A DNA stretch of 64,000 bases from Candidatus Omnitrophota bacterium (GCA_030681595.1 JAUXSB010000056.1:10009-74008); one strand, 5' to 3'; counted from the stretch's first letter, positions 46,487 to 63,919 are shown. Notes: generated by a model not told the origin, from the letters alone. A program made the numbers and translations.

Positions 46487-46667
46487 CCGTCAGCCTGATC
46501 CTGTAGCCCATTTTTTCCGCATACTTTACTGCAACATATGCCTCTGGCTCTGACACCATGGCAAAAAGGCACAAATCCCGGAAAGCAATGGCTTTCTTGG
46601 GAGAACTGGCCTGCATCAACAGGGCAGCCGCGGTCTCAATCTTTTCCTGTCTCTCATTTCTTTTCAT
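46449..46667 (-). CDS. Hypothetical small protein (element)
   Basis: 72-aa ORF. Confidence 0.3.
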   Translation of the reverse strand: MKRNERQEKIETAAALLMQASSPKKAIAFRDLCLFAMVSEPEAYVAVKYAEKMGYRIRLTDDFPRKLYTIHG

Positions 46668-47526: not shown

Positions 47527-47538
47527 GATTCTGCCTTT

Positions 47539-48168
47539 CTATTCCCATCTTCCAAACTCAACATACAGATTATTGAACTGCACAACTAATGCAGGATCAT
47601 TGATGGCTGCATCCATAATGCCTGCCACGATTGTAAATGGCAGCGCAAATATGCATCCTGCAAATGCAATAGCATTCTCTGACATCGCCTTCATCTCGCT
47701 GTCAATTATCTCCCGGGCATGGCTTTCCATGGGAAAGGCAATCCAGATGCCATCATACTTAACCCTATGCTGCTTTAACACCGCGAGCTTCCTGAACATT
47801 TCTGAGGGAATTTTATCCTGTTCTGAATAATCAGCAATTCTCACGAGAGCCCATTTGAAATCACTGCCCTTAACAACAAACAGATTTTCATTCTCCCTTA
47901 ATACATGAAAGCAAAACGGTTTTGCCTCGAGCCCGGTTTTCTCTAACCCTTTGATTATCTCCCTTCCTGCCTTAAGATGATTCTCTGAACTGCTTAATAT
48001 CCTTGGCTGTCTTGAATCACTCTTAATAAAACTGATTCTTTTTGTTCTGCGTATCCTGCCCGGAATTTCCCCTCTCTGGATTTTTTCCGGCAGAAGAATT
48101 CTCCCTGAAAGTAAATTCTCAATTCCATCCCTTTTTAACAACCTTTCATTCACAATCAGATTTTCCAT
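47539..48168 (-). CDS. Hypothetical protein (element)
   Basis: 209-aa ORF, 2 nt from the ATPase gene. Confidence 0.35.
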   Translation of the reverse strand: MENLIVNERLLKRDGIENLLSGRILLPEKIQRGEIPGRIRRTKRISFIKSDSRQPRILSSSENHLKAGREIIKGLEKTGLEAKPFCFHVLRENENLFVVKGSDFKWALVRIADYSEQDKIPSEMFRKLAVLKQHRVKYDGIWIAFPMESHAREIIDSEMKAMSENAIAFAGCIFALPFTIVAGIMDAAINDPALVVQFNNLYVEFGRWE

Positions 48169-48169
48169 T

Positions 48170-50122
48170 TCATTCCTCCTGGTTTTTGTTCCGGTTAATC
48201 AAATCCCGCAAATCTTTTTTCAAAATCTCAGAAAGCAGCAGCACTGTTGTTCTGTTTCTCATTTCTTCTGGAATTTCCGTAATAATCTGCATCACCTCCT
48301 CTTTGACTTTTTTATCCCTACATGCAATAATAATAAAATCAGCCCTTGCAATACCTATGTCCTTCTCAATGTTTGCCTTTTCATGCAGAGAACTCATCGC
48401 AACCTCTATTGCTATAAGCATGCTTTCATGCTCAACTGCAACGTCAATAAACTTGCCAAACTTGTTAAGCTCAATCTCAGGCTTGTATTCCTTGAAATGC
48501 TCTACAACTAAATGCTGCCATACAAGATGCTCATAGCCTGCACCCTTTCCATAAAATTTCTTTTCCTCAATGCTTAACAGCTTGTAAGCCTGCTCAAGCA
48601 GAACGGGAAACTTGCTTACGCCCTTTCCCTTAACAATTTCAATGATTTTTATCATCTCCGCGCCTTCAAGCTTTTTTGCTGTTTTCGTTCCCCTGCAAGC
48701 TGAGAATCCTGCAATATCATGAATCTCTGTAAGTGTTTTTCTGTACTGGTTGAGGTAAACAGCCATGAGAAATTCCTTCTCATCATTGCTGATTAAAGGC
48801 TTTTCTTCCTTAATGTCCTCCCTGATTCTTGGCACAGGCGCGGAGAAATCCTTTATTATTCCCTCATTGTTTTCTGCCAGCTCTTCTTTGCTCATCGGCT
48901 CTGGAAAATCTGCCTCATAAATAAATGCCACGAATGGCCTTGCAATTCCTCCAAGCTCCACTATGGCTTCATGCTTTTCCCTGTTAAGGTTGCATAAATG
49001 CTGTTTCTGCTCTTTCTCTGTCAGGCCCATATGCTTCTCCATTGCATTCCTGTCAATGCCGGAAAAGGACAACATCATAATCTTGTTTGCCATGTTTGAA
49101 AGAACCGCAGGGCTTAATTCTGCAGGCGACTGCGAGCATAAAATCATATGTATAACCCCTTTTCTTATATTTGCAATAATGTCTGATATAAGCGTTAATT
49201 CCATGCTTTTCTGCAATAACAAATTTGCATCATCAAGGACAACAACCCGCATCCTGTCTGTCTCGCTTGAATAAAGGTGCAGAAGCAATGAATTGACAAT
49301 GAATTTCTGCTCTGAGAGCGTTAATTCCGAGATTTTAAAAATCGCGCTGCTTTTTACGATGTCATCCTCATGCCCTTTCACGCAGTCAAACGTCTTTCCA
49401 AGAGAACTATTAATCAGGCCTCCAAGCCGGTTCAATATACTTTCCTGGTATCTTGCAGTCCTGCTTAATCCCGGATGTTTTCTTGCCCTGATAAAATAAT
49501 ACAAATCATAAAGATTGGGCTCAGGATTCTTTCTTTTCAGCTCTCTTATTGCCTCAAGAAGATATGCCTCACTGCCCTCATATAAAACAAAGGAATCATT
49601 AAAAACAGAGACAAAAACTTCTGGCTTCAGGAAATGCAGCGGATTTATCTGCATCTTCCCGTTGAAATCATCATAAAAAATGTCAGGAAAAACTTTCATC
49701 ATGCTTGTTACCTCATCGGATTTTGCGAAAATCCATGCCTTATGGCCCTGCTCCAATGCTCCCCTGCACAGAATCATATAGGTAAATGTCTTGCCTGTGT
49801 TGGACGAGCCTATGATAAAGGTATGCGGGCTTAATATGGGCCATCCCACATCTTTGCCGGCTTCTGTCAAAGCAAACCTTATCAGGCTGTCAACGTCATC
49901 CGGAACATTAAAAGGCGAGCATGTCAGCTGCATCCTGATTATTTCAGGTGCAAGCTCGTCCAGGCATTCCTTGAACAATCTCTGGTTGCCCGGCTCTGAA
50001 AGTGAATCAAGGCACATTGCCATTCTCTTCCTGTCAAGCATGCCTTTCTTCTTCAGGAGCTCGAAAAGCTCTAAAGGATTCCTGGGAAGAATTCCTTCTA
50101 TTCCCTTCATTGATTCTTCCAT
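48170..50122 (-). CDS. FtsK/HerA-superfamily P-loop ATPase fused to a C-terminal winged-helix plus Hjc-like nuclease module
   Basis: Walker A IIGSSNTGKTF and Walker B VVVLDDANLL about 190 aa apart (FtsK/HerA/TraB-like spacing). C-terminal 170 aa: wHTH, then GYEHLVWQHLVVEHF ... FIDVAV ... IAIEVA, following the E / hhD / (I/V)E(V) pattern of Hjc-type PD-(D/E)xK nucleases with the Lys replaced. The real start may be the Met at about 50041. Confidence 0.6.
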   Translation of the reverse strand: MEESMKGIEGILPRNPLELFELLKKKGMLDRKRMAMCLDSLSEPGNQRLFKECLDELAPEIIRMQLTCSPFNVPDDVDSLIRFALTEAGKDVGWPILSPHTFIIGSSNTGKTFTYMILCRGALEQGHKAWIFAKSDEVTSMMKVFPDIFYDDFNGKMQINPLHFLKPEVFVSVFNDSFVLYEGSEAYLLEAIRELKRKNPEPNLYDLYYFIRARKHPGLSRTARYQESILNRLGGLINSSLGKTFDCVKGHEDDIVKSSAIFKISELTLSEQKFIVNSLLLHLYSSETDRMRVVVLDDANLLLQKSMELTLISDIIANIRKGVIHMILCSQSPAELSPAVLSNMANKIMMLSFSGIDRNAMEKHMGLTEKEQKQHLCNLNREKHEAIVELGGIARPFVAFIYEADFPEPMSKEELAENNEGIIKDFSAPVPRIREDIKEEKPLISNDEKEFLMAVYLNQYRKTLTEIHDIAGFSACRGTKTAKKLEGAEMIKIIEIVKGKGVSKFPVLLEQAYKLLSIEEKKFYGKGAGYEHLVWQHLVVEHFKEYKPEIELNKFGKFIDVAVEHESMLIAIEVAMSSLHEKANIEKDIGIARADFIIIACRDKKVKEEVMQIITEIPEEMRNRTTVLLLSEILKKDLRDLINRNKNQEE

Positions 50123-50624
50123 TACTTACCCTTTCATGAATTTGCAGATTGTACCCCTTGTTATTTGCAAGCGTCATAAGCCATGTATCTGTTCTATCTC
50201 TACCTGTAAACACTGTTCTCGCTGAAATCAGCAGCAGCATGGGCAAATGATGGCTCCTGCATGCATAAGCGCTGTTTACTGCCCTTGCGCAATCCCTGCA
50301 TCCGGGAACAGTGCAAAGTTTCCTGAAACACCCGGGATAAATACAGACAAGAATGTATCTCTGCGCGCATTGCAGGCATATCAGATGCCCTGAATTGCAG
50401 ACATGCCCTATGCCAAGGCTTGCAGAATGGCCGCAGGGCAGGACAATCTCCTTTTCATTGTGAACCATAATTATGCCCTGTTCAGGCACGTAGATTTTGC
50501 CTTTCTCCACCTCTGAGATTATCCCCTTGCCCGGGTCAAATTTTGAGATGCTCTTGTGAATCCTTACTGTCTTTATTCCGCTCGGTCCGTCAATTATAAT
50601 CTTGTTAATGCTTTCTTCGTTCAT
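50034..50624 (-). CDS. Cys/His-rich hypothetical protein (putative zinc-binding)
   Basis: LPCGHSASLGIGHVCNSGHLICLQCAQRYILVCIYPGCFRKLCTVPGCRDCARAVNSAYACRSHH carries about 14 Cys and 6 His within 70 aa. Confidence 0.35.
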   Translation of the reverse strand: MNEESINKIIIDGPSGIKTVRIHKSISKFDPGKGIISEVEKGKIYVPEQGIIMVHNEKEIVLPCGHSASLGIGHVCNSGHLICLQCAQRYILVCIYPGCFRKLCTVPGCRDCARAVNSAYACRSHHLPMLLLISARTVFTGRDRTDTWLMTLANNKGYNLQIHERVSNGRINEGNRRNSSQESFRAFRAPEEERHA

Positions 50625-50636
50625 TTCTCACCTCTC

Positions 50637-51128
50637 TTAAAATTCCCCATCAAAATCCATTCCTGAATCTGCATTAAAATCATCCCCATCTGAAGAATCA
50701 TAATCCTTAACTGCATCTTCTTCTGCCCATTTTGCAGGGCAATCTTCTCTCGTGATAAAACTTCTCTTTTCTACTGTGGCTTTAGGCTCATCAGCTGCAT
50801 TTTCATCTTCCCTGTCATCCTTATGCCTGAACTCATAATCCTCAATCATCCTCTCTTCTGCCTCAAACTTTTCCTGTTCCTTTCTTTCTGCAAGCTCTTC
50901 TGCCCTGGCGCGCCAGAATTCCATGCCTGGATCCTTATCAGGCTCATAAATCTCATAATCCTCAATATCCCGGGCAGGTTCATCCTTGGGAATTCTCGGT
51001 CTTAACTTTTTCCCTCGAAAGGTGTCAAAAAGTGCTTTCAGAAAGCCTATAAAATTAGGTGGATATCTCATCCTGGCTCCTTTCAGTTCAAATTTTTCTT
51101 TTAACTTGAAATTCCGGTTGAACTTCAA
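50637..51128 (-). CDS. Highly acidic hypothetical protein
   Basis: 163 aa. The C-terminal half is about 40% Asp/Glu (EDYEFRHKDDREDENAADEP ... DYDSSDGDDFNADSGMDFDGEF). Confidence 0.35.
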   Translation of the reverse strand: MKFNRNFKLKEKFELKGARMRYPPNFIGFLKALFDTFRGKKLRPRIPKDEPARDIEDYEIYEPDKDPGMEFWRARAEELAERKEQEKFEAEERMIEDYEFRHKDDREDENAADEPKATVEKRSFITREDCPAKWAEEDAVKDYDSSDGDDFNADSGMDFDGEF

Positions 51129-51139
51129 ATCAGAAAAAG

Positions 51140-51529
51140 TTAATTCAGGCTATAGCTGCCAGAACCCCTTGACTCATTCCCGCAGCTCGGGCATTTCTTT
51201 TTGTATAGCCTGCGCGCCTCATCCAGCGGATCAGGAAGCCTTCCATAAGGCACAGGAAACAGGGTTACAGGTCCATACAAACTTTGCCTTATTGAATATC
51301 CCTTCATTTTTATGCCTGCATTTGCATAACCTCTTGGTGTTATGGAAGAATATCCCATCCTTGACGAGTCATTTATTCTGTTCGTTAAGCTATACCCTTT
51401 ACTAGAGCCTGCTAAGCTGTATCCACCACCCGAACCCACTAGAGAATATCTTGAACCACCTCCGGCACTGCCCAGGCTGTAACCTGTTCCGCCAATGCTC
51501 ATGCTTATCCCGCCGCCTTTCTTGCTCAT
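51140..51529 (-). CDS. Gly/Ser-rich GYSL-repeat protein with C-terminal CPSCG motif
   Basis: Repeats GYSLGSAGGGSRYSLVGSGGGYSLAGSSKGYSL, then KKKCPSCGNESRGSGSYSLN. Confidence 0.35.
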   Translation of the reverse strand: MSKKGGGISMSIGGTGYSLGSAGGGSRYSLVGSGGGYSLAGSSKGYSLTNRINDSSRMGYSSITPRGYANAGIKMKGYSIRQSLYGPVTLFPVPYGRLPDPLDEARRLYKKKCPSCGNESRGSGSYSLN

Positions 51530-51623
51530 GAAACCATGAACAGCTGCAATTATTTAAAGTTTTCCCTGTCTTGACTCTCATTGCGGGGCTCTATCAAAGA
51601 GCCCCGCGCTGCCAACTGCGTTT

Positions 51624-52004
51624 TTAGAAACCCTTCATTACAAAGCTGGCATTTGAGCCGAGAGAGCGGATCTTGCCATCAACAAATATATTGTTTATCT
51701 TGGGAATCAGTTCGAAGATCGCTGAATCAGGTGTATGCCCGCGCTCTTTTATCATGAAATTTATGACATCACTGCTAGATGGTCTGGCCTCGGGGTTAAA
51801 CTTGTTCCCCTTAATCAAATCCCTGTAATCAAAAGACTTGATTGGATGCAGCTTGATGTCTGACAAAGGCTCGATGCTTAATTTCCAGGGCTTGATTTCC
51901 GGCACTGTAATCTTAGTGTGCCAGAACTCCAAAGGCAGATTTGTCTCATTAGACATGAACTTGGCAAAGTCGGATTTTATTTCTGAACCGCGAAAGTCTT
52001 TCAT
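51624..52004 (-). CDS. Hypothetical protein (element), strong SD AAAGGAGG
   Basis: 126-aa ORF with a canonical RBS. Confidence 0.4.
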   Translation of the reverse strand: MKDFRGSEIKSDFAKFMSNETNLPLEFWHTKITVPEIKPWKLSIEPLSDIKLHPIKSFDYRDLIKGNKFNPEARPSSSDVINFMIKERGHTPDSAIFELIPKINNIFVDGKIRSLGSNASFVMKGF

Positions 52005-52034
52005 TTCTTCCTCCTTTTTGAATTTCTTTCTGTT

Positions 52035-52163
52035 TTAGTAAGAAATAGCCAATCTCATTCCCTCCTTCACAAACTTTAAGCCCTTCCGGGCCCTGTCCAG
52101 GACTGAAATAGCACGCCTTGACTTACTGAGAATCCTCATCACTTTACGCTTTAGCTTTTTCAT
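52035..52163 (-). CDS. Unannotated 42-aa basic small protein (MKKLKRKVMRILSKSRRAISVLDRARKGLKFVKEGMRLAISY)
   Basis: ATG at 52163 preceded by AGGAGGTG at optimal spacing. Stop at 52035..52037. Below the track size cutoff. Confidence 0.4.
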   Translation of the reverse strand: MKKLKRKVMRILSKSRRAISVLDRARKGLKFVKEGMRLAISY

Positions 52164-52292
52164 CTAGGATCACCTCCTTTCGATTCGCTTCTAGGGTAAG
52201 TTTACAATATCTTTCGTGCGAGATAAAACCACTTGTCTGCCACGTTTGTGCCACGAGTTTAAGGAAAAATTTAAAAGGACGGGGAGCTCAGG

Positions 52293-52709
52293 ATGACTAT
52301 GAGCATACTTGATTATTTGGATAGAAAAGCACTCAAAAGGAGAATATTTAGTAACGGCGGGAAGATTAACTTAAATGCTACTATAAAGGATTTTGTAACT
52401 TATGCCGGATATAGAAAAAGAGGAAATGAGGAGGGTCTTAGTTTTAGTGCTTATTTACAACTTCGCAGATTTAATGATATAACAATAAGGGATTTGGAAA
52501 GAATCAGGCCATATGGGTTAAAAAGACTTATGATAGTTGGTATTGGAGAAAAAAAGGCAGAGGATTTAAACAATGCCTTATCTAGCTACGGTGTTAAATC
52601 TATACCCTGGACAACAAAGAAATACAAGGCATGGGAATTGAGAAAAGAATTGCAAAAGAAGCATGGTAAATACACTGAAACAGTGGGAGATCTTTTAAGG
52701 AAAGATTAA
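52293..52709 (+). CDS. Hypothetical protein (element, plus strand)
   Basis: 138-aa ORF, convergent with the 486-aa gene and overlapping it by 4 nt. Confidence 0.35.
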   Translation: MTMSILDYLDRKALKRRIFSNGGKINLNATIKDFVTYAGYRKRGNEEGLSFSAYLQLRRFNDITIRDLERIRPYGLKRLMIVGIGEKKAEDLNNALSSYGVKSIPWTTKKYKAWELRKELQKKHGKYTETVGDLLRKD

Positions 52710-54166
52710 ATTTTTTCTATTAAGCAATAATTAGGCATTGGGATAAGCTCATATTCATCCATCTCGTTTGCCTTAAGTTTTGCATTTAATTTTTTAAAAA
52801 ATAAATTGTTCAGGTCCTCAATCCTTCTTCTTAGCTTTTTTGAAATATCTTCAACCTTATCCTTAAACAGTTCTTCTGCTGCTTGCCTTTTTGCTCTGTC
52901 GAGATCTGGTTGTATTTTTATCGCTTTAACTAATTCTCTTACATCTTTAAAATCAATGGCATACCTAACATCAAAAACATGCTGAGCCATATTCCACGCA
53001 GTTCCTCCGGATCCTTTGTGCTTAAGAATATAAGACAATACCCGGTATGTGAGCTTACCAGAAGGTGCCCTAACCTTTTTACCGTTAATAAAAGCTTGTG
53101 TGCGAGTTTCCTCTCTAGAGATAAACAGAGCATACTTTCCTAGATTCGCAATTATGTCTTCTTTTTGTTTTGTATCTGCCGACTTGCCTTTAGGTTCGGA
53201 ATCGTTAAACCAAACTCCATATTCCGCCTTTTCCGCTTCTGGCTTCACTCTCTTATCAACTCTAATTCTCTTTGTTAAACTATCGCCTAATCTCTGCATT
53301 TGTTTCTTAATTTCTCCTCCAACAGATTCTGTAATGTCTTCCTTGAACATTTCCCTGCTTTGTTTTTCCGCCATAAAACAAGATAAATCGTTGCTCAAAT
53401 CACTGGCAACCCTGAGCCGGCTCATAAGCCTATGTCCATCATCTTTTGATATTTGGTTAATGCTTTTATGGTGTTTGGACCTAACTAACTCTTCAAAATC
53501 AAGAACAAAATTTTCTATGGCATCTATGCTTTCTTTGCCTTTTTTATATCTGATATTCCTTAAAATCTTTTTTGCTTCATCAAGCGTATTAAAATCAACT
53601 GCTTTAAAATTGAGGCAATCATGTAATGCATAAATAGTTTTAATCTTCACGCCCATAGCCAAAAAAGGATTCTCGGGACGCAATTCTTCGCGTTTTTCCC
53701 AATGTTTTTTTACCCTCTTAAAATTTTTATCCGCATCAGGATTAAAAAATGCTTTAATCCATTTCTTTTGCTTTAAGGTAGTAACGAGATCCCTGAGATA
53801 TCCCGCCATTAAGACTAACGAATCTGCGTTAAAGACCTCTTTATATTTCTTATCAACAGGCATGATTTCATTTACAAGGAAAGGTAATGTTTCTACGATG
53901 TTACCTTTAACTTCAAATATTGCAAATGCTTTAATTGCTTTCAAAAAATACTTTTCTGCCTCGTCTACATTACCTTCCCTGAACGCATACAGCCCCTCAT
54001 TATAAAAAAGGTTTGGGATAAAAAGATTGGGATAATCTTCTGCAAGGGATATAAATTCTCTTTCTACGTCCTTATGATCTCCCTCAAGCAAATGGGTCAA
54101 GCCTTTTATATAATCTTCGAAAATGCCTTCAATCTCTTTCTCAAATGTAAACTTTTTCAAATTCAT
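52706..54166 (-). CDS. Large hypothetical protein (486 aa) with TPR-like N-terminus
   Basis: ORF only. N-terminal TPR-like helices (EAEKYFLKAIKAFAIFE). No catalytic motif seen. Confidence 0.4.
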   Translation of the reverse strand: MNLKKFTFEKEIEGIFEDYIKGLTHLLEGDHKDVEREFISLAEDYPNLFIPNLFYNEGLYAFREGNVDEAEKYFLKAIKAFAIFEVKGNIVETLPFLVNEIMPVDKKYKEVFNADSLVLMAGYLRDLVTTLKQKKWIKAFFNPDADKNFKRVKKHWEKREELRPENPFLAMGVKIKTIYALHDCLNFKAVDFNTLDEAKKILRNIRYKKGKESIDAIENFVLDFEELVRSKHHKSINQISKDDGHRLMSRLRVASDLSNDLSCFMAEKQSREMFKEDITESVGGEIKKQMQRLGDSLTKRIRVDKRVKPEAEKAEYGVWFNDSEPKGKSADTKQKEDIIANLGKYALFISREETRTQAFINGKKVRAPSGKLTYRVLSYILKHKGSGGTAWNMAQHVFDVRYAIDFKDVRELVKAIKIQPDLDRAKRQAAEELFKDKVEDISKKLRRRIEDLNNLFFKKLNAKLKANEMDEYELIPMPNYCLIEKI

Positions 54167-54247: not shown

Positions 54248-54748
54248 CTAAGCGGACTCTTCCGTCATTATCGGAATCTTCGATATAGAGAAGATGTTTT
54301 CTGCGGGAATGATTGTATCTTCGCTGAATATCGATTGGGATGAATATTCAAAGGTGTTCATCGGCCTGTTGTTAAAGAGGTAATCCCCGAGCATAAATGA
54401 CTTTCCGTCATAGCCAAGGAGCTCGCCGTGATGATAGCCGTCCTTGGTATGAATTACAACCTCCTCGCCATATAACCTATTTAAGAGATTATCCGCATTG
54501 GGATTTCCTGACTGCCTGATCCTTCCCAGCATCTTCGCGAGCCTTGCCTTTGCCTCTGAGTATTTAGGATTCTCATATTCAACAGTTCTCGTGCCATTGA
54601 GGGTTTCAGTATGGCTGTGATAACTCAATGGTATGCCTCCCTTTTTCTCGCACTCCTTAAAAAAATCATCAAGCGTCATAGACATTCTAAAAAGGCTGGA
54701 ATATAAATATTTTTCCCTGCGAGACAAACCTAAAGACAACCCTTGCAA
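54248..54748 (-). CDS. Hypothetical protein (element)
   Basis: 166-aa ORF. Confidence 0.35.
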   Translation of the reverse strand: MQGLSLGLSRREKYLYSSLFRMSMTLDDFFKECEKKGGIPLSYHSHTETLNGTRTVEYENPKYSEAKARLAKMLGRIRQSGNPNADNLLNRLYGEEVVIHTKDGYHHGELLGYDGKSFMLGDYLFNNRPMNTFEYSSQSIFSEDTIIPAENIFSISKIPIMTEESA

Positions 54749-55129
54749 AGCAAGAGTTTTCTTAAGTTTTTTCTCGTGCTCTTTTCCTATCTTTCCCGCG
54801 TTTAGCTTTTCGTGTAAAAGCCCAATGGCTCATGGCATTTCCTCAAAACCCGAAGGGATTAACAACGAACAATTGCTTACCTTCAAACAGAGGAAGCTTC
54901 GCTAACTTCGCTTCACTCTCGATTGAAGGCAAAAGTTTTAAGGGATTTGCCTTCCTGCTTTGCATTCCATCCTTCTTAAAACATTTTGGCTTGAATTTCA
55001 TTCAAGCTTTCTTATATCTTATCCCTTCTCCATGAGGGCTGACTACTCCCTCTTCCCTTTTTGCCCCCAGATCATTAAGGGGGCAAAAAAGATTTCCCCC
55101 GTTAAATGGTTGAAAGGAGGTAAGGGAAA

Positions 55130-55426
55130 ATGAAAACAACACAGGAAATTAAATCTGATTTTGAGCAGATTTTAAGTGAAGTAAGCAAAATTTTAGGAGT
55201 AACACCGGATACAGCAGTTCAGGTTTCAACAGTGATTTTGCAAGAATCTGGGAAATTCCAGAGGACAGAGATAATGCACAATGGCAGAAACAACAGCAAC
55301 GGCGACAAGCCTGCAACGCCAAAGCAGATAAAGTTTTTGCAGGACTTGGGCATTCCAACTGAATCAGGGATAACAAGCAGGAAGGCAAGTGAACTCATTG
55401 AAGCGAACAAGGGAAAGGGCAGGTAA
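55130..55426 (+). CDS. Small protein with DUF3072-like C-terminal motif
   Basis: PATPKQIKFLQDLGIPTESGITSRKASELIEA resembles the PAT..Q..YL..L ... K.EAS..I motif. Strong SD AAAGGAGG. Confidence 0.35.
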   Translation: MKTTQEIKSDFEQILSEVSKILGVTPDTAVQVSTVILQESGKFQRTEIMHNGRNNSNGDKPATPKQIKFLQDLGIPTESGITSRKASELIEANKGKGR

Positions 55427-55541
55427 CTGCCCCTTCCTTCTCTTTCAAGTAAAATGACAGAATACATTATTGACTTTGCGAGTGTTATCCTTGAGGCTTC
55501 CAGCAAAGAAGAAGCTTACAAGATGGCAGCGGAGTTAATCA

Positions 55542-55898
55542 GTGAAGGCGAAATTGGGGTTGATCAGATTGAGCCAAATTAAAATGACGGATGACTTTTG
55601 GAAGGATGCGGAGATAATCGATGTTTACACAGATGGGCAGGCTGTTGATGACGGGGTTTTAATTCCAGTGAAATTTGAAAACATCACAAGGATAACAAGG
55701 GCTGTATTTGATGGCTTTGACAAGAGGGGCTTTGACGCACCGGGATTTTACAAGTTCATGACTGAGGCGTCTAAAGAGCTTGAAAGCCAGCAGCGTATAA
55801 AATACGACTGGTTTTATTCTGTTTTAATTGAAGGCAGAAGATACTACCTTGTTGACAATGGCAATGGATTTACTCTGATGAAACCTGAAGATTACTGA
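55542..55898 (+). CDS. Hypothetical protein (plus strand)
   Basis: 118-aa ORF. The real start is probably the internal Met (MTDDFW). Confidence 0.3.
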   Translation: MKAKLGLIRLSQIKMTDDFWKDAEIIDVYTDGQAVDDGVLIPVKFENITRITRAVFDGFDKRGFDAPGFYKFMTEASKELESQQRIKYDWFYSVLIEGRRYYLVDNGNGFTLMKPEDY

Positions 55899-55899
55899 A

Positions 55900-56640
55900 A
55901 GCGGGCTTATTTGATTTTTTACTTATTCTTTATTTTTTATACATCTTGTGGCAAGATTTATATTGATTGATGGATATACTAATTTAAGGATAAACCCTTT
56001 GAATTATATAGAAACCCATAAAAGGGGATTTCGCTAACGGCTAAATGCTCAACCCCAATTTAAGGCTTTCTATCTTATTTATATTAACGACGACGCTGTG
56101 TGCCCCAGCTCTGATTGCCGAGGGCTGATGCCATCTCTGGCAATCGAGGGGGCACTTCGTGCCTCCCTACTACGGCTTAACGTACTACCTTTTTATGCTA
56201 CTTTATTTAGATGCTACTCTCTACTGCTCTGCTAATACTACTCTGCCCCCGTTTTTTACTCACTACTGCTTCTACCTCTAGTACCGCTACATTCACGTAC
56301 CGCTACCTCTTATTCTACCTTTACTATCTCTGACGCTTCTTTTTTATGTTGCTAACGCTACTACTCCACTTACACTTGGACTATTTCTTCTACTTTTATT
56401 TGTTTACTTTACGTAACCTTTTGTCTTACTTTGACTTATTTTTCTTTGACTTGTTCTTGGAGCTTTGACTTGTTCTTGGAGATTTGACTTGTTCTTTTTG
56501 TTTCTATTGGTTTTATTTGTTTCTTTGATTTTACTTATTGATTTATAGTGTGTTGGATTTATTTCTATATATGGGATGGGGATAATAGAAGCGAAGAAAC
56601 AGAAACAAAAGCAAAAGCACGTTCATAAGTCCGGCTTTTT
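55900..56640. repeat. 740-bp gene-free, strongly strand-skewed region (pyrimidine-rich top strand; about 20 GTAG/AGTAG/GGTAG motifs on the bottom strand) with a 54-nt imperfect palindrome (56101..56154) and 19-nt tandem repeats (56427..56500)
   Basis: No ORF of 60 aa or more on either strand. The top strand has almost no G between about 56160 and 56540. CTTTGACTTGTTCTTGGAG occurs about 3.5 times in tandem. Lies immediately 3' of the tyrosine integrase gene. Confidence 0.7.
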
Positions 56641-57832
56641 ATCTGGGATGAGAAATCTTATCCTTTGGTTTAATCAACTTGGATGCCTCATAGGATTTTC
56701 TCCTGAACATGGCGGCTAACTGGTTGAGCTGGTTCCATATTTTTTTCTCGCCCTGCGATAGCCTGTCTATCTCTTTCTCCAGCCTTGATTTATCCGCTTC
56801 AACTAGCAAATCTTCTTTTCTTATATCGCCCGTCAGGCCCAAAAACTCGGTGTAGTAGTTCAGCATGGTAAAATCTGTCCAGCCACCTCTCTGCCTTAGC
56901 GCATCAAGGCTTATTTTCCCGGATTTCTGGGCTATTTGCCTCAGATGGCAGGCCCCTGAGTGCCTGAAATCATAAAGAGTCATCTTTGAATAAAGCTCAC
57001 CTCTCGGATGCGATAATTTATCCCCGAATATCTGCTTGGCCACCTTCTGCAATTTATCTGTAAAGACAGGATAGCTGAATGAGAAAATGTAATCATTGGA
57101 TTCCAGGCCTTTTCTTTTGATATACTTTAATACGGCTTCCCCGCAATAGAGAAAATTGCCTGTTCTCCCTATTGTCTTGCTTATCTCCTGGGAAATATTG
57201 AAATATACCTCCCCCTCCTTTACAAAGATGTCTTTTGCCTTCATGTTCATCAATTCAGTAGGGGCTCTGATTAAGGTGTCAAAGATGAATAGCAATACAA
57301 CCTGCTCATCCTCGCTAAAGTAAGGAAGCATGGAATCTAACTGATCTTTGGTTATATAGACAAACTTTGGCTTTTCTCTTGATGTGTCCAGGTCTTCTGT
57401 AATGTCCGGAATTTGTATCCCTTTTTTTCTGTTTACAGTCATATGCCAATGCCAAAAGGCCTTAAAGATTTTGACATAATCAGCAACGGATTTATAGGCC
57501 TCTCCAACATTGGTTTTGATCTTTCCCGTTCTCATGTCATTAAAAAGGCAGACTAGATCCTTTTCATCCACTTTTGTTATGTCTTTTGCGTCTCTTTTTT
57601 CAAGCATTCCCATTATAAAGGCAATCCTGTATCTCAGGCTATTGAGCCTCTGATAGCTCCTAGCGCCTTTCTTTGCGCCTCTTGGAATGTTTACGCCTTG
57701 TTCCATATCAAAGACATATGCTGTTAAAATCTCAGAGTTTTTGTTGCTCAATCCATCTATTCCTGATTTAGAGATCTCTTCCTTCCAGTCTTTATATCTG
57801 TCTGCGTGATGGTAAATATCCAATTTAACCAT
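56639..57832 (-). mobile_element. Tyrosine recombinase / phage-type integrase
   Basis: C-terminal catalytic region with R..H..R..Y spacing (LYDFRHSGACHLRQ ... LRQRGGWTDFTMLNYY). Confidence 0.8.
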
Positions 57833-58062
57833 GCAGAAAGATAAGCGCAGCTACTTTATAAGGATTTCGATGCTCCCTCCAGTCCCGTCGGGAGCATTGA
57901 GAGAGCATCGAATAAGTTAACTATAGACAAACCGAAAGTTGACGGTGTGTAGGGAATCATCTTTTACGCGATTCCTACTTTGCTCTATAAATAAGCAAAT
58001 CAAATAACTTGATACAAGAATAAATATCTTTCAATATGTTCTCCTTCTCCTCTAAGCTGAAC

Positions 58063-58293
58063 TCAGTTTTGTAAGCCAAAGGAGTCGAGGCTTCCGGCTG
58101 ATACTGTTCTATTGTCTGCTCTTTCACGTTCTTCTCGTAATGTGTTTCCATCTCCCTCAGCCTCATGGAGAAACTCATCTCTCCAAACACAATTAGGACA
58201 AATCCAATATTGCTCAACCCTGCCATTAACCAGCCGGCTGGTTAAAATGAGCCTGGATTCGTCCTGTTGATGACATAGCTTGCATTCTTTCAT
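58063..58293 (-). CDS. Small zinc-ribbon protein (CxxC ... CxxC)
   Basis: MKECKLCHQQ ... WICPNCVWRDEF. It overlaps the alternative ORF 57975..58226; which frame is used cannot be decided. Confidence 0.3.
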   Translation of the reverse strand: MKECKLCHQQDESRLILTSRLVNGRVEQYWICPNCVWRDEFLHEAEGDGNTLREERERADNRTVSAGSLDSFGLQN

Positions 58294-58505
58294 AAAGGCA
58301 GCATCAAAGATGCCTTTATTGCCTTTTTCAGCAAACTATATTAATGGCCCTAAAAGTCAATCCCCGTAATCAATGCCTTTTGGCATGGTGTGATAGTCAA
58401 ACTTGTATTCAATTACATGAGTCAGCTTCATGCCCAAGTCTTTCAACATCTTCTCTATGTTCAAAACCGCCTTCATTGCCTTTGTTTCAAGATTCTCCAT
58501 CATCT

Positions 58506-58904
58506 TCAGCCCTTTATCTGCTCTGCATTGAAAGCCGTACTTGCCTGCCTTTGCCTGGCAGATTCGATAACCTTCTCAAAGTATGCCACTGCCTTGAAGA
58601 AGGGCCTTTCGAATCCCGGCACTCTCACGATGATGCTCCTGCCATCTCTTGTGATGCCTATCTTCAGCTCATCTCTTTTTTCGCCCTGATACTGGTTTAG
58701 GTTTTCTTCCATTTTTGGTTTACCTCCTGTATTAATTACAGAGAGGTAACGCTTATATAGGTTTTCAGCAAAGAATATTAACGGGGGATTTTGGCTGAGG
58801 GATAGGGGATTTAAACTTTGTAAGCAAAGTGTGGCATGAAGTTTATTTGTTAGATAAAATAGATTTTGCAACTCTGAATAAAAATGCGATTGCGCGGGAA
58901 ACAT
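58506..58904 (-). CDS. Hypothetical protein
   Basis: ORF only. The real start may be the internal MEENLNQYQ. Confidence 0.3.
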   Translation of the reverse strand: MFPAQSHFYSELQNLFYLTNKLHATLCLQSLNPLSLSQNPPLIFFAENLYKRYLSVINTGGKPKMEENLNQYQGEKRDELKIGITRDGRSIIVRVPGFERPFFKAVAYFEKVIESARQRQASTAFNAEQIKG

Positions 58905-58940
58905 TAATATGATATTATTAATAAGTATTAAGGAGTCGAA

Positions 58941-59915
58941 ATGTCATGGTCAGAGAATTTATTTCTAAATGTACTTAAAGCTGCCGCTCCCACTGCATTT
59001 ATCTACGAAAAAGATTTTTCTCCCTTCGTAAAGGATATCACTTCTCTTTGTGAACAAAACAAAATCCCGTTAGATTGTATTCTAGTTGATTTTGATGGCA
59101 TAACTCTTTCTCCCAAAATAGCTGAAGTATTACTCAACGATAAACATAAAATTATTCTGTTTGGTCTGAAAGAAAATGTTTGGCATTTCCCTGAGCGACA
59201 GCAAGCCAAAAGTAAACTCAAAAAAAAGCTGATTTCTCTAGCATGTTATTACGACCGCATCACTGAAGAAGGAGATTATGATAATAGTATTATTAAAGCA
59301 TTGGCGAATGACTTAGCCTTAGCACGTCTATTCGAGAAAGGGAAAAAGGTAACCATAGCTAGTCCTAGCGGAACTAAAATTAAAGCGGAGATAGGGGAGA
59401 GGAGTTTTTTTGAAAACGGTGACTATAGCAAATGTGGGAGTGGCGGTGATTTCCCATCGGGAGAAGTCGGATTTGGGCCGAAAGAAAATAGCGTAAATGG
59501 TCTTATTGTCTTTGACCTGAAAATTCAACATATAGGCACAGTATCGAACTTAAAAGTAGAAGTTGAACAAGATAAGATAGTTACGATAGAAGGTGAAAAA
59601 AAGGAGGCCTACGAAAAGTTATTAAAGAAGCACGACATATTAAATCTTATTAGTGAAATATCAATCGGGATTAATCCTTTTATCAGAATCAAAAATGAAC
59701 CTTCAGTATTGGAAGAAAAGAAATTAGGAACGGTTCATTTCGGACATGGAGCTAATTTGTCTTATGGTAAAAGAAAAGGGTTGCACTTCGATGCGGTTAT
59801 AAGGGATCCTACCTTCACAATAGAAGATAAAATAATCCTTAAGAGGGGAGGAATCAACAAAATCATTCTTTCGGAAGAGACAAAATCGCTCCTAGAAAAG
59901 GTTGACGAAAGTTGA
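58941..59915 (+). CDS. Hypothetical protein, possibly metallopeptidase-like (M29 aminopeptidase-like His/Asp cluster)
   Basis: LGTVHFGHGANLSYGKRKGLHFDAVIRD. Weak similarity only. Confidence 0.3.
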   Translation: MSWSENLFLNVLKAAAPTAFIYEKDFSPFVKDITSLCEQNKIPLDCILVDFDGITLSPKIAEVLLNDKHKIILFGLKENVWHFPERQQAKSKLKKKLISLACYYDRITEEGDYDNSIIKALANDLALARLFEKGKKVTIASPSGTKIKAEIGERSFFENGDYSKCGSGGDFPSGEVGFGPKENSVNGLIVFDLKIQHIGTVSNLKVEVEQDKIVTIEGEKKEAYEKLLKKHDILNLISEISIGINPFIRIKNEPSVLEEKKLGTVHFGHGANLSYGKRKGLHFDAVIRDPTFTIEDKIILKRGGINKIILSEETKSLLEKVDES

Positions 59916-59951
59916 AATATATGCTATACTTATAATCTATCATTAGATAAC

Positions 59952-60731
59952 ATGGAAAATCCAATCAAATTCAAGAATAATAGCAACTTGATCCTTGCAG
60001 GCATACTGAATAGTCCTGTTGAATCTAGTAACGCAGGCATCATATTGTTGCATGGTTTTGCAGGAAACAAAGAGGAGAATGGGTTATTCCCATATGCTGC
60101 AAATATCCTCAGTGCCAATGGTTATCATACATTAAGATTTGACTTTGCTGGGGTAGGTGAAAGCCAAGGCGATTATTCAAAAAGCACTTTAAATAGTCAA
60201 AAAGAAGACTTTATTTCTTCTCTGGATTTTTTTGTTAAAAAGTGTCATTTAAGCAGAGTTGGAGTAGTTGGTTTTAGTCTTGGAGCAACAATCGCCTTGC
60301 TTGGTTATGAGAAAAAAATAAAAGCAATGGCGTTATGGAGCCCCGCTTTGTTTCCCAAGAAAGATATGTTCCCTCGCTATCAGACAAATGAATTCAAAAG
60401 ACATCTAAAAGGATATGGCTATATAAATAAAGGGGGGCTAAAAGTTGGGAGTGAAATAATAGATGATTTGGGTAAATGCGATCTGATTCCTTTTATAAGA
60501 AGAGTGGAGTGCGAAGTATTATTGATACACGGAGATAGAGACGAAAGAATAAATTATAAGAGTACCTTAAGAGCAGAAAGAAAATTTCTTAAAGCACAGA
60601 CTTATATAATAAAAAATTCTGGACATTCATACAAAGAAAGTTATCTTGTGAAAGAAGAAGTTTTAAATAAGACTATAGAACTTTTCAATAGAAATATTCT
60701 GCATAAAGTACCTGCCAAGAATTTGGTATAA
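59952..60731 (+). CDS. Alpha/beta hydrolase (dienelactone hydrolase/esterase type)
   Basis: Nucleophile elbow VVGFSLGATIAL (G-x-S-x-G), an N-terminal ILLHGFAG oxyanion region, and a C-terminal HGDRDERI with the His of the triad. Confidence 0.65.
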   Translation: MENPIKFKNNSNLILAGILNSPVESSNAGIILLHGFAGNKEENGLFPYAANILSANGYHTLRFDFAGVGESQGDYSKSTLNSQKEDFISSLDFFVKKCHLSRVGVVGFSLGATIALLGYEKKIKAMALWSPALFPKKDMFPRYQTNEFKRHLKGYGYINKGGLKVGSEIIDDLGKCDLIPFIRRVECEVLLIHGDRDERINYKSTLRAERKFLKAQTYIIKNSGHSYKESYLVKEEVLNKTIELFNRNILHKVPAKNLV

Positions 60732-60918
60732 CTCCTTTTAATCTAATTAGTTAAAATAAAAGAGGGCAGTTTTAAGTCATGCCCGGGACTTTTTAGTGGT
60801 AGTGTTAGCATTAGCTTTTCCCCGCTGATGTCCTTATCCATTCATAGACAAGTGAGAAGGTGTTTTCATCCTTCGTAGGGTCTGGTTTTAAGTCCAGCAA
60901 CTTCTTTCCTCCTTTCTG

Positions 60919-61161
60919 TTAAACCTGATATACCTCAAGCACAATGCTTTGTAGCTCGCTTTGCATTGACTTGTCCACCAATGTAACGGTCGGATACCAC
61001 TTGCTGTCCTTGCCTTGTGATTTTGGCATCGTTACAAATAATCCATTGGTGCCCTCAATTATTCTCACTCCTTTCACAAGAACTTGGTTTATCACAACAT
61101 CGGCAAACGCCTTCAATGACGAGCCGTTTTCAACCCGATGCAACCTCGCAACCTCTATCAT
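60919..61161 (-). CDS. spoVG: SpoVG-family protein
   Basis: IEVARLHRVENGSSLKAFADVVINQVLVKGVRIIEGTNGLFVTMPKSQ is collinear with B. subtilis SpoVG ([49 protein letters not shown]). Confidence 0.75.
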   Translation of the reverse strand: MIEVARLHRVENGSSLKAFADVVINQVLVKGVRIIEGTNGLFVTMPKSQGKDSKWYPTVTLVDKSMQSELQSIVLEVYQV

Positions 61162-61501
61162 TTTTTACCTCCTCTCCCCATCTCTGCGCTTCCCTGATTT
61201 TCTTAACTTCGCTTGCTTTACAAGGATTCCAATGCAAATCCCTGTCAACCTCAACAAAGCTCACCTTGAGACTGCTTAACTCTTCAAGGCTGAAATAGCC
61301 CCACTCTGCCATTTCAAGATCATTATTGAGTATCGCGAACCCAAAGAAACATTTTTCCTCAGGTGAATACTCGCAGGCATACCAGTCACAGCCACCGATG
61401 AAAAAATGCATGTGAATCATCTTTTTCTTGAGATGCACTTCCTCACTTGAATAAAAAGCCGGCAGCTTTGCCATCTCTTCTTTTGTAGGCATGTTCCACA
61501 T
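61130..61501 (-). CDS. DUF2958-family protein (typical ICE/plasmid cargo)
   Basis: GGCDWYACEYSPEEKCFFGFAIL ... AEWGYFSLEEL matches the DUF2958 core pattern. Confidence 0.5.
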   Translation of the reverse strand: MWNMPTKEEMAKLPAFYSSEEVHLKKKMIHMHFFIGGCDWYACEYSPEEKCFFGFAILNNDLEMAEWGYFSLEELSSLKVSFVEVDRDLHWNPCKASEVKKIREAQRWGEEVKNDRGCEVASG

Positions 61502-61532
61502 GATTCAGCTCCTTTCTCTTTAACCTGTCTTT

Positions 61533-61778
61533 TTATTCGAGAATCAGATTTTTCCCTGCAATAAGAATCTCTCCCGGGCTCTTGAGCTTCCCGAGGATTT
61601 CCTTATTAACAAGCACTGCCAGCGGCTCGGTAACGTAATCCCCTTGCGTGCCGTTCAGGGCAGCAATAACCGCTGTATCTATACCCCCTAATTCCGTTGC
61701 AAGCAGCACAAAATTGCTGAACTGACCGCTTATTATGTGCCTGTATTTCTTTGTCTCTTCAGGGGTAATATCCCTCAT
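61533..61778 (-). CDS. Hypothetical small protein
   Basis: 81-aa ORF. Confidence 0.3.
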   Translation of the reverse strand: MRDITPEETKKYRHIISGQFSNFVLLATELGGIDTAVIAALNGTQGDYVTEPLAVLVNKEILGKLKSPGEILIAGKNLILE

Positions 61779-61791
61779 CCGTCATCTCCTT

Positions 61792-62034
61792 TCATTTTTC
61801 ATCGTTAATGTAGCAACCCTTACAGTCATCATTTTTGTCAGCAAGGCAGGCCTCGCAGATAATATCTCCTGCTACTGCCTTTAATGACTGCTTAATCAAT
61901 GATTCTGCAATCTCTGTCATTGGCTTTTTGTAAACCCTTTTCAGCCTGTAGATTGTTCTTACTGCCTTTTCACTCAATACTGGACTGTACAACTTTCTCC
62001 TCCTTTCCGCTGCAGAAGCTGCATTCGCACGCAC
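61792..62034 (-). CDS. Small Cys-rich protein (C-terminal CxxC ... CxGC)
   Basis: ICEACLADKNDDCKGCYINDEK. Likely start at the internal Met (MTEIAESL). Confidence 0.3.
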   Translation of the reverse strand: MRANAASAAERRRKLYSPVLSEKAVRTIYRLKRVYKKPMTEIAESLIKQSLKAVAGDIICEACLADKNDDCKGCYINDEK

Positions 62035-62111
62035 TCCAGCCGCAGCACGCGCACATCATGCAACCCCCAGCATGAATAATCTGAGAGCCACAATCCGGGC
62101 AAAATTCCATG
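61974..62111 (-). CDS. Unannotated 45-aa Cys-rich peptide MEFCPDCGSQIIHAGGCMMCACCGWSACECSFCSGKEEKVVQSSIE
   Basis: ATG at 62111..62109, TGA at 61976..61974. Nine Cys in 45 aa. Different frame from the track ORF 61974..62156, and below the track cutoff. Confidence 0.35.
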   Translation of the reverse strand, partial: HGILPGLWLSDYSCWGLHDVRVLRLECVRMQLLQRKGGESCTVQY

Positions 62112-62196
62112 ACAATCACCCCCTTCCTGAAAAATAAAAAGAGAGGGCAAAAACATCCCGTTAAAACCTTCGCGAGTAAAAACAGGAATGCCCCCT

Positions 62197-62820
62197 CTAT
62201 CTGCTTTTGTATTCAGAATAAAGAATTCCGTATCTTAATTCATTGTGCCATTTTCCATATCTGAATCTCGGCTCTCTTATTTTTCCTTCGAGCTTGAAGC
62301 CCGATTTTTCCAAAACTCTTCTTGAGGCAATATTTTCCTCAAATAAACCTGCGTAAATCTTATGGAGCTTGAGCCTTCTGAAACCAAACTCTATGAGCAA
62401 TTTGGCTGCCTCTGTCATAAACCCCTGTTCCCAATATCTCTTTCCCAGCCAATAGCCGATTTCTGCATTTCTGTTTTTGTAATCCAGCTTGAGCAGTGTT
62501 ATGACGCCTATGACTTTATTCTCTTTTTTCAGCATTATGCCAAAGGCGTATGCTTTCTTTTTTCTTGCATCGTAATGCGTTTTTCTTATAAATCTGGTGG
62601 CGCTATCTTTGAAGTACGGATGCGGAATGTTCAAAGTCCACCTGATAATCTCTCTATCCTTTACATTTTGATAAATGTCCTCGCTATCAGAAAATCTTAA
62701 TTTCCTAAGTGTTATTCTTTCCCCCGATATTTCTGATGTTGCCTTAATGTCATTACTTAAACTCATGCCCCCTCCTTTCCTTAACTGTTTAGAAATAAAA
62801 AAGAGCAACGCTATAAGCAA
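62197..62820 (-). CDS. GNAT-family N-acetyltransferase (RimJ/RimL-like)
   Basis: ITLRKLRFSDSEDIYQ ... RYWEQGFMTEAAKLLIEFGF ... HKIYAGLFEENIASRRVLEKSGF is the RimJ-type Acetyltransf_3 pattern. Confidence 0.7.
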   Translation of the reverse strand: MLIALLFFISKQLRKGGGMSLSNDIKATSEISGERITLRKLRFSDSEDIYQNVKDREIIRWTLNIPHPYFKDSATRFIRKTHYDARKKKAYAFGIMLKKENKVIGVITLLKLDYKNRNAEIGYWLGKRYWEQGFMTEAAKLLIEFGFRRLKLHKIYAGLFEENIASRRVLEKSGFKLEGKIREPRFRYGKWHNELRYGILYSEYKSR

Positions 62821-62977
62821 TTGCTCTTTCGCTAAAAGGCATAAAGATGCCTTATAAATAACTCCCCATCAAGAGAAGTTATTATTTTGTGTTAAAAATA
62901 CCTGGAATTTAAGTGGCGGGGTTTTAAATACCTTTTCAGCAAAGTATATTAATGGAAGATTTGGGGCTAATAAAGAA

Positions 62978-63919
62978 TTAATCTATTTCAAAATTCAAGA
63001 CAGAGGTTATCTTTATCTTGGCATTAATCAGTTTATTTTCAGCCAGGCATTGCCGGATTTTTTCTTCTGCTTCTTTGCTTGTCGCAACGCAGACAGTATT
63101 GTCAAACGCCTTTAAATCCCTTGCAATATTCCTGATGAAATCAGAGCTGCCTGTTTCTATCTCAATGGCTGTCTGCCTGCTTTTATTGAGGATGATAATA
63201 TCGGGCCTGCCGTTAATGTGCTCTTCAACGAGAATTTCAAACCCTTTATTTTTGTAATACTCGGCTATCCTGAATTTCCAGAATTTATGCTCTATGCCTT
63301 CTTTGTCATCCTTGACTTCATAACCCAAATCCCTCAGCAGGCCTTTTCCTTTTGGAGTTAATTCAAACAATGTTATCCAGCCTGAGTTAGTAATAATCCT
63401 TACCGGCTTGATAAAGCCATTTTCAATCAATGAGCTCCTGTGCCGGTTTCCTGTGCCCGGGCTTATGTTCATTCTCCTGTATCTCTGGGTTATCCCGGAA
63501 AGCTGATTTGTAAAAACGTCTATAAGAAGCCTTTCGGGAGGGGTATTCGCATATTCGCATCTTTCTCTAACCTTACTATTATCCCCCTGCGAATACCCCC
63601 TGTTTTCATCGCTTTTACCGTCGCTGGCAGGCTTGGAATACCCCCTCCCGTGCTCTTTAAGCCAATCATCAGTTATCTTGCCCTTTTCAACAGGCACGTA
63701 GAGGAACTGGGTAAGGCATGGATTTATTCTCTCCATTATTTTGACTATTCCCTGGCCTGTTTTGAGCATGTTCAAATATGCCTCATCATCTCTTGGCAGA
63801 AACATCGCCTTTCTTGCCGACTCTATGTCCTCCTGGTGCTGCAATGCAAGAAATATCAGGGTATGGGAATTACCAAGAACGTAAATCGGCAGAAGCGAGG
63901 GATGCTGCGTAATGCTCAC
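62978..63919 (-). CDS. Hypothetical protein whose C-terminal 170 aa is paralogous to the ATPase C-terminal wHTH plus Hjc-like nuclease module
   Basis: GIEHKFWKFRIAEYYK ... GRPDIIIL ... TAIEIETGSSDF aligns position-for-position with the ATPase C-terminus GYEHLVWQHLVVEHFK ... GKFIDVAV ... IAIEVAMSSLH. The preceding segment (GFIKPVRIITNSGWITLFELTPKGKGLL) aligns with the ATPase wHTH. The N-terminus may extend beyond 63919. Confidence 0.5.
   Translation of the reverse strand: MSITQHPSLLPIYVLGNSHTLIFLALQHQEDIESARKAMFLPRDDEAYLNMLKTGQGIVKIMERINPCLTQFLYVPVEKGKITDDWLKEHGRGYSKPASDGKSDENRGYSQGDNSKVRERCEYANTPPERLLIDVFTNQLSGITQRYRRMNISPGTGNRHRSSLIENGFIKPVRIITNSGWITLFELTPKGKGLLRDLGYEVKDDKEGIEHKFWKFRIAEYYKNKGFEILVEEHINGRPDIIILNKSRQTAIEIETGSSDFIRNIARDLKAFDNTVCVATSKEAEEKIRQCLAENKLINAKIKITSVLNFEID

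Follow-up and report, generated by a model that had tools for sequence, protein, structure and literature searches.

The window analysed here is a stretch of 64,000 nt from a metagenome-assembled genome (MAG) of Candidatus Omnitrophota, and all coordinates refer to this window and are counted from its first letter. Ordinary chromosomal genes, among them those for glutamate synthase, pgi, murJ and trehalose-phosphate synthase, are found at 1-42 kb, and further on the window contains an integrated mobile element, in which a gene-free, repeat-rich stretch (55899-56638) separates a rightward operon of small genes from a converging gene for a tyrosine integrase. The original prediction had offered four explanations for this stretch without choosing between them, i.e., an attP/arm-site cluster, an iteron-type replication origin, a clt-like transfer locus or a structured non-coding RNA; these were borne out in part, with attP being contradicted. 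The stretch is best read as the control region of a mobile element, an ordinary kind of feature that comes here with arrays of repeats, in an unusual and partly decayed form and in an element family that is uncharacterised. Three of its blocks are conserved across relatives, namely the two hairpins HP1 and HP2 and a promoter-like block with GAAACA words, the last of which lies, in the relatives, upstream of a gene that this copy lacks. The features at the locus are, from left to right:

55584-55898, plus strand: last gene of the small-gene operon, 104 aa from the ATG at 55584 and listed as a 118-aa open reading frame (ORF) from 55542; left conserved flank.
55899-56007, plus strand: AT-rich spacer of about 70% A+T, with T runs past the stop codon and weak sigma-70-like hexamers.
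56008-56073, plus strand: HP1, an imperfect hairpin composed of ATAGAAAC-CC-A-TAAA-A-GGGG, a variable tip and CCCC-AA-TTTA-A-GG-C-TTTCTAT.
56100-56155, plus strand: HP2, a strong GC-rich hairpin with a fold of -37 kcal/mol (z = -3.7).
56164-56400, plus strand: pyrimidine-rich array, present in this copy only, with 15 CTAC words, mostly YRCTACY, in one orientation and with nested partial repeats.
56407-56430, plus strand: inverted-repeat motif CGTAAC-N7-CTTAC, the first of two copies, with the palindrome TTACGTAA inside; found by eye.
56420-56500, plus strand: T/G-rich array, TTTGTCTT followed by TTTGACTT units (4-5 copies) that include the 19-mer CTTTGACTTGTTCTTGGAG, two perfect copies and one degenerate.
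56495-56612, plus strand: orphaned promoter-like/operator-like block with two GTTTC (56500 and 56519), the second inverted-repeat copy (about 56532-56549), a -35-like TTATTT (56559-56564), 18 nt, a -10-like TAATAG (56583-56588) and two GAAACA (56596-56607).
56613-56638, no strand: gene-loss junction, at which the relatives' gene of 180-186 aa is missing; homology stops just past GAAACAAAAGC.
56639-57832, minus strand: gene for the full-length tyrosine integrase (397 aa), which converges on the region; right conserved flank.

The gene on the right was correctly recognised as a tyrosine integrase (PHROG integrase at 4e-14; Pfam at 27.4 bits against a cut-off of 27.1). Its family comprises 886 matches at E <= 1e-5, and a tblastn search of the integrase against phage and plasmid collections gave no match. 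The relatives compared are fetched loci with integrases 50-72% identical. The window genes at 54248-63919 have homologues whose order is conserved in L020/L021, L023 and L072 and, for part of them, in L159 and L160. On one side of the region the element carries a leftward operon that encodes a HerA/DUF87-like ATPase (faint Pfam matches), DUF2958, SpoVG (60919-61161), small genes and the integrase, and on the other side the rightward operon of small genes, of which the last, the 104-aa gene, shows a weak DUF6573 match and 52-54% identity to the genes at the same position in L020, L023 and L072. The region sits between these two modules, and this includes the chromosomal copies in this window and in L072 (a 725-kb contig); region and both flanks are likewise found in unchanged order in L020, L023, L160 and L167. 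In L023 and L167 the shift to chromosomal-looking genes occurs beyond the small genes upstream of the integrase and not at the region. The integrase and all neighbouring genes are intact in the window. A literature search on Omnitrophota integrative elements found no description of this family. Close homologues of the integrase, at 40-57% identity and near full length, are found in loci L002-L019 and L025-L104, and their MAG labels (DPANN archaea, CPR bacteria, Omnitrophota, Binatia, Bacteroidetes, Lentisphaerota and Bacillota) are unusually wide, a spread that could reflect real transfer or binning errors.

The promoter-like block is 70-79% identical over 80-117 nt, as shown by blastn, to the DNA just upstream of a gene for a winged-helix-like protein in L020, L023, L069, L072 and L052. 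This gene, of 180-186 aa, lies between the block and the integrase in the relatives and was found by tblastn in 11 fetched loci. The relatives' block contains an inverted repeat, a -35-like TTGTTT, 16-18 nt, a -10-like TATAAT or TAATGG and two or three GAAACA. Upstream, the relatives possess 4-12 GTTTC words, with about one expected, and 2-4 GAAAC are located beside the gene start; the window has two GTTTC, which fit, without proving, a binding-site role for the winged-helix-like protein. The first inverted-repeat copy resembles the relatives' conserved GTAAGTTGTTRAYTTAC motif and TTACGTAAC in L160; an operator function of the motif is putative. The GAAACA block gave 0 matches in viral contigs. 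By tblastn the winged-helix-like gene was found nowhere in the window, even at E <= 0.1, and L001, an independent assembly of the same sequence, confirms that the junction is contiguous with the integrase. A decayed copy of this gene, or of the relatives' genes of 54-89 aa, within the region was considered and rejected, as tblastn returned noise only (<18 bits).

The winged-helix-like protein family has 35 members in the protein database. The structural model has a mean pLDDT of 63, with a confident N-terminal domain that forms a helix-turn-helix plus wing. Foldseek against the PDB yielded nothing at E <= 0.001, the nearest folds being MarR-type regulators, and no Rep similarity was found by Pfam, PHROGs, PDB sequence search or fold search. 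As only the N-terminal domain is confident and no Foldseek match is significant, the structure cannot separate a regulator from an initiator. In L165 a second, shorter integrase-family gene (1445-2092) lies beyond the winged-helix-like gene and replaces the usual non-coding region.

HP1 was found in nine distinct sequences from the relatives and the window, eight of them detected by covariance model R1 at 60-73 bits, and the ninth being L167, in which it was recognised by eye and which was included in the RNAalifold alignment. In an alignment of seven sequences 84.8% of the cells pair and four pairs show compensatory changes, which was equalled by 3-5 of 500 shuffles, and RNAalifold independently predicts the hairpin. 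Little or no change is seen in the bases CC-A-TAAA-A-GG and CC-A(A)-TTTA-A-GG-CTTTC. In the tip, length and sequence differ yet the bases pair, as seen for CTCTGAC/GTCAGAG in L072 versus CTCAGGC/GCCTGAG in L163 and for GGGG/CCCC in the window versus GAGG/CCTC in L020. Over 98 loci the model matched only the sequences used to build it, and HP1 is therefore confined to this subfamily. The 3' arm of HP1 gave 54 matches in viral contigs, none with the HP1 5' half in place and none relative-like.

HP2, at 56100-56155, is the imperfect 54-nt palindrome that had been noticed at 56101-56154. Its 3' arm GGCAC (56151-56155) can alternatively pair with GTGCC at 56159-56163. The HP2 arms are near-identical in L069/L160, the closing stem GTGCCCC/GGGGGCAC is replaced by the compensating GTGCTCC/GGGAGCAC in L167, and HP2 is degenerate in L020 and L023. 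The hairpins have G-U pairs on both strands. HP2 was also considered as an att-like repeat at the element ends and this was rejected, the 18-mer being present once in the window and otherwise only in L069. The suggestion of a structured non-coding RNA has two hairpins conserved with compensatory changes in its favour, but no Rfam family matches: Rfam 15 gave no match in 55000-57500 at E <= 10, and a search of the window and seven relatives at the gathering score gave nothing in the region nor anywhere in those seven relatives. A scan for tRNA and tmRNA was negative.

No ORF of at least 60 aa is present on either strand at 55899-56638, in agreement with the original prediction; the longest has 47 aa. 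All six frames have negative codon-usage scores (-0.15 to -1.4), compared with +0.04 to +0.23 in real genes, and the minus strand has 10-13 stops per frame, TAA and TGA being present besides TAG, so that recoding of TAG would open no frame. A recoded or low-complexity protein was ruled out by the codon usage and by stops of all three kinds; a weak period-3 signal is attributed to trinucleotide-like repeat units. A blastn search of the region against phage and plasmid collections gave no match. A promoter scan made one promoter-like match in the spacer (55936-55964), and the spacers of the relatives are AT-rich too, with TATA-like hexamers, and align poorly; a promoter function of the spacer at 55899-56007 is putative. 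At the integrase side the stretch is closed by a T-rich block ending in GAAACAGAAACA and by a purine tract, which had been reported to adjoin the integrase 3' end and was located to 56594-56618, ending 20 nt before the stop codon at 56639-56641.

Between HP2 and the promoter-like block lies the variable part of the region, a slot of 340 nt here and of about 40-100 nt in L023, L072 and L159. The slot of L020 contains extra small genes or an internal duplication of about 260 nt. L163 carries, just past GAAACAGAAACAAA words (L163 2350-3950), a 1.55-kb cargo insertion with a gene for a 464-aa Laminin_G_3 protein, bounded by the 7-nt direct repeat AAACGCC. This insertion point is the point at which the homology of the window ends and the winged-helix-like gene is missing, and it may be prone to rearrangement. 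Signs of recent local duplication are the two perfect 19-mers, the duplication of about 260 nt in L020 and the second inverted-repeat copy in the window. The slot that holds GTTTC arrays in the relatives is occupied here by both the CTAC and the TTTGACTT array.

The CTAC array was described earlier as about 20 GTAG-type copies; the motif array is present, with 15 copies, read as CTAC on the top strand at 56167-56393, while GTAG on the top strand of the array is absent (zero copies). The spacings of the words are irregular (3-43 nt), nested partial repeats with several different periods occur, and the units are diverged from one another. The array is the densest place for CTAC in the window, which has a mean of 0.54 per 250 nt, and the 15 words compare with 1.7 in a mononucleotide expectation, i.e., an 8-fold excess. 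Over 241 nt the composition is 31% C and 9.5% G, with C minus G reaching 23 in 78 nt, and the top-strand RNA is near-unstructured, with -16.7 kcal/mol per 256 nt versus -51.6 +/- 10.4 in typical stretches. No homologue of the CTAC array was found in relatives, phages, plasmids or viral contigs, and in the loci of more distant integrases (<=57% identity) neither GTAG nor CTAC is enriched downstream of that gene. Scanning the relatives broadly for base-depleted stretches was uninformative because the AT-rich genomes of many relatives yield such stretches everywhere.

For the second array, about 3.5 tandem copies at 56427-56500 had been noted; the 19-mer CTTTGACTTGTTCTTGGAG is indeed tandem, with 2.8 copies at 56444-56496 (97% matches), and degenerate TTTGACTT units begin at 56420. 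It is found nowhere in the window outside the array. The autocorrelation has a peak at lag 19 (z = 5.4). Viral contigs gave two matches to the 19-mer, each single-copy inside an ORF of high-GC phage contigs, and 0 matches to the doubled GTACCGCTAC; the TTTGACTT array has no homologue in the relatives or collections searched. L001 breaks within the 19-mer array, at 56452, indicating that the repeats break short-read assemblies. An exact-protein look-up of the 104-aa gene of the left flank, aimed at a second assembly covering the CTAC stretch, returned no record.

The strand skew would follow from these arrays, since their units all share one direction and contain no G in the first array and almost no A in the second. 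The top strand had been thought almost free of G for about 400 nt; G is depleted (23 of 241 nt, 9.5%, in 56160-56400), and the G-poor part extends over about 240-260 nt, as the strand is T/G-rich from about 56420 on. The statement that nothing comparable occurs elsewhere in the window holds for the repeats and fails for the skew, because the GC skew, which at the 200-nt scale has its window minimum here (-0.544), is nearly equalled at other places (-0.52 and -0.50) and at the 78-nt scale C minus G exceeds that of the region opposite several minus-strand genes.

Taken as a whole, the region is read as an internal intergenic control region of a mobile element integrated in the Candidatus Omnitrophota chromosome and not as a recombination site, a reading to which a probability of about one half is assigned. 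It is supported by the ordinary chromosomal genes of the host, the synteny on both sides, the conserved blocks with the covariation of HP1 and the fold of HP2, the GTTTC enrichment in the relatives, the winged-helix-like gene being present there and absent here, the signs of local duplication, and the lack of a coding signal, of gene remnants and of an Rfam match. According to this reading, the GAAACA and GTTTC words would be binding sites of a winged-helix-like regulator that controls its own gene, and the slot between HP2 and the promoter block would evolve fast by local duplication. In this copy, the slot would have been filled by two copy-specific arrays, CTAC (15) and TTTGACTT (4-5), and these might act as protein-binding repeats of operator or centromere type that replace the role of the GTTTC array, a weak step that is loosely held. 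The orphaned promoter, if active, would point into the integrase gene at its 3' end, in antisense direction.

The omega repressor of pSM19035 binds heptad repeat arrays, and MarR-type winged-helix repressors can be autoregulated. The relatives resemble such operator arrays of plasmids and phages in that words are repeated upstream of a promoter, inverted copies are present at the promoter and the copy number is variable. In contrast, the window lacks the presumed regulator gene, its repeats are CTAC/TTTGACTT instead of GTTTC/GAAACA and irregularly spaced, and binding here is putative.

Several observations weigh against the control-region reading. The 15 CTAC words exceed the 10.6 +/- 2.2 of dinucleotide-preserving shuffles by only about 2 sd, an excess that is small because 22 of the 45 A's fall in TAC, and with a short core (4-6 nt) and irregular spacing the words are unlike classical operators or iterons. 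No relative has a CTAC or TTTGACTT array, no CTAC- or TTTGACTT-binding protein was identified in the element and no extra DNA-binding gene is present compared with the relatives. The CTAC stretch is supported by one MAG contig, the independent contig L001 stopping at 56452. The promoter hexamers were chosen by eye and the promoter scan made no call there. The similarity of the winged-helix-like protein to regulators is sub-threshold, its C-terminal half is poorly modelled (pLDDT below 60), and its putative link with the GAAACA and GTTTC words is one of position and co-occurrence only.

Alternatively, the arrays might be non-functional low-complexity DNA that arose by slippage and segmental duplication of G-free units after loss of the regulator, with the skew as a by-product. 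This is unlikely; in its favour are the nested partial repeats with several periods and irregular spacing, the two perfect 19-mers, which point to very recent slippage, a period-3 autocorrelation that fits a trinucleotide-like seed such as CTA/TAC, the absence of homologues of the arrays in any relative or collection, the CTAC excess that is mostly gone under dinucleotide-preserving shuffles and the loss of an otherwise conserved gene from this copy. Bacterial genomes tend to delete useless DNA, however, and 340 nt is much to keep; the integrase and its neighbours are intact; moreover, the CTAC units are diverged from each other and the stretch is still G-poor.

A doubtful explanation is that of a zone of Rho-dependent termination or attenuation, in which top-strand transcripts starting in the small-gene operon or just upstream of HP1 would contain HP1, HP2 and then about 250 nt of Rho-loading RNA and would be ended before the converging integrase gene. 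Rho loading sites are C-rich, G-poor and unstructured over about 80 nt or more, and the tract resembles such rut regions as it comprises about 240 nt of C-rich, G-poor, near-unstructured sequence on the strand of the upstream operon, with the base composition and fold energy given above; it follows an operon on the same strand and is placed between converging genes, and L052 and L061 have shorter G-free C/T tracts after a small ORF. However, many ordinary genes of the window have a C excess at least as large on the opposite strand, so the composition is not specific to Rho loading and is ordinary for the antisense strands of this genome. The tract is absent from the closest relatives and is thus no part of the conserved design, and as it is located upstream of the orphaned promoter it could not end transcripts that start there.

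It is rather improbable that the region constitutes an iteron-type origin, a partition locus or a transfer locus of the excised element, with the arrays binding an initiator, a centromere-binding protein or the HerA/DUF87-like ATPase and the hairpins and AT-rich parts acting as unwinding or loading sites. In iteron plasmids, an adjacent gene encodes a small DNA-binding protein, with inverted copies of the repeats at its promoter and repeat arrays further upstream; the relatives show a similar layout around their adjacent small DNA-binding-like gene. The direct repeats beside the small winged-helix-like gene (in the relatives), the inverted partial repeats and the AT-rich DNA are likenesses to the origins recognised by RepA, RepE or pi. 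The direct repeats have one orientation, the 19-mer occurring three times at 19-nt spacing while the larger CTAC array is irregular; AT-rich flanks and conserved hairpins are present, and the element encodes the HerA/DUF87-like ATPase. On the other hand, the window has no Rep-like gene beside the region, no significant match of the winged-helix-like protein to an initiator was obtained and the protein is absent here, the element is chromosomally integrated, and the region contains one one-mismatch match to a DnaA box, with the total in the window at chance level and no cluster. The CTAC core is too short and irregular for classical iterons or 8-bp translocase repeats, and no relaxase was found among the ORFs scanned. 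The clt loci of Streptomyces conjugative plasmids are bound at 8-bp repeats by the FtsK-like TraB. They are like the region as an irregular short-word array in an element with a HerA/FtsK-superfamily-like ATPase, and unlike it in having 8 bp instead of a core of 4-6 nt; the Pfam matches of the ATPase are faint and nothing connects array and ATPase, leaving an analogy only.

As a long shot, HP1 and HP2 might together form a new structured RNA or single-stranded-DNA element of an undescribed integrative-element family, with the CUAC/GUAG array possibly offering many loading sites to, or acting as a sponge for, a nucleic-acid-binding protein encoded by the element, candidates being the HerA-like ATPase and the conserved homologue of SpoVG. 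The internal-loop bases of HP1 are invariant, and in this copy HP2 is followed by the long unstructured CUAC-rich tract.

An attP or arm-site cluster of the adjacent integrase, the weakest of the explanations and very improbable, would agree with lambda, in which attP lies just beyond the 3' end of int, in the position directly past the integrase 3' end and the short repeated words in one orientation; but attP splits into attL and attR on integration, the region stays whole with both flanks inside integrated chromosomal copies, the flanking change of L023 and L167 lies elsewhere and the CTAC and TTTGACTT arrays are absent from elements with integrases 69-72% identical, so that the region being the attP that integrated the element is contradicted.

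Further observations concern the surroundings of the region. Three genes, which encode a large serine recombinase (43125-44726), a STAND-like NTPase (48170-50122) and a TPR protein (52706-54166), lack homologues in the loci of the relatives, and 43125-54166 looks like a separate or variable island beside the conserved element. Inside the integrase-side operon, on the opposite (plus) strand at 58941-60731, genes for an M29/NicX-like peptidase and an alpha/beta hydrolase are located; these look like copy-specific cargo because the relatives have small unknown genes there. In the relatives a gene for an M48 peptidase invariably lies at the outer end of the small-gene module (L020 9776-11476; L023 9892-11775; L162 1-496; L163 1-250); the window lacks this gene, which may be a member of the element or a marker of a preferred insertion neighbourhood. 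A GC-rich block, caggcaagttgcgcc...gcattagca...gccttgcc, is conserved between L072 7500-7660 and L164 2290-2400; in L162, whose sequence is identical to that of L072, it was taken for an ORF of 75 aa, although it looks more like structured non-coding sequence. Two known RNA motifs lie elsewhere in the window, both on the minus strand: a c-di-GMP-I-GGC riboswitch aptamer at 16536-16621 (64.1 bits, gathering score 59) upstream of a gene for a 1113-aa S8 subtilase/CARDB protein (12886-16227), and a nhaA-I RNA at 39275-39328 (38.7 bits, gathering score 37) just upstream of a gene for a 745-aa family-20 glycosyltransferase of the trehalose-phosphate synthase type (36986-39223).

With these results, the reading as attP, appealing but wrong, is removed, and it is apparent that short repeats running in the same direction can, as a simple by-product, generate a conspicuous strand skew. 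A small, uncharacterised family of integrative elements is outlined, with members in Omnitrophota and in MAGs labelled as further ultra-small lineages, and for this family no match was found in the phage, plasmid or viral-contig collections searched. The window copy constitutes a natural variant without the regulator gene, which could be informative, with no pointer to a new kind of mechanism. The control region of the family is recognisable by its conserved hairpin, word arrays, promoter-like block with GAAACA and small winged-helix-like gene, and this layout provides a handle for finding such elements and for testing their regulation.

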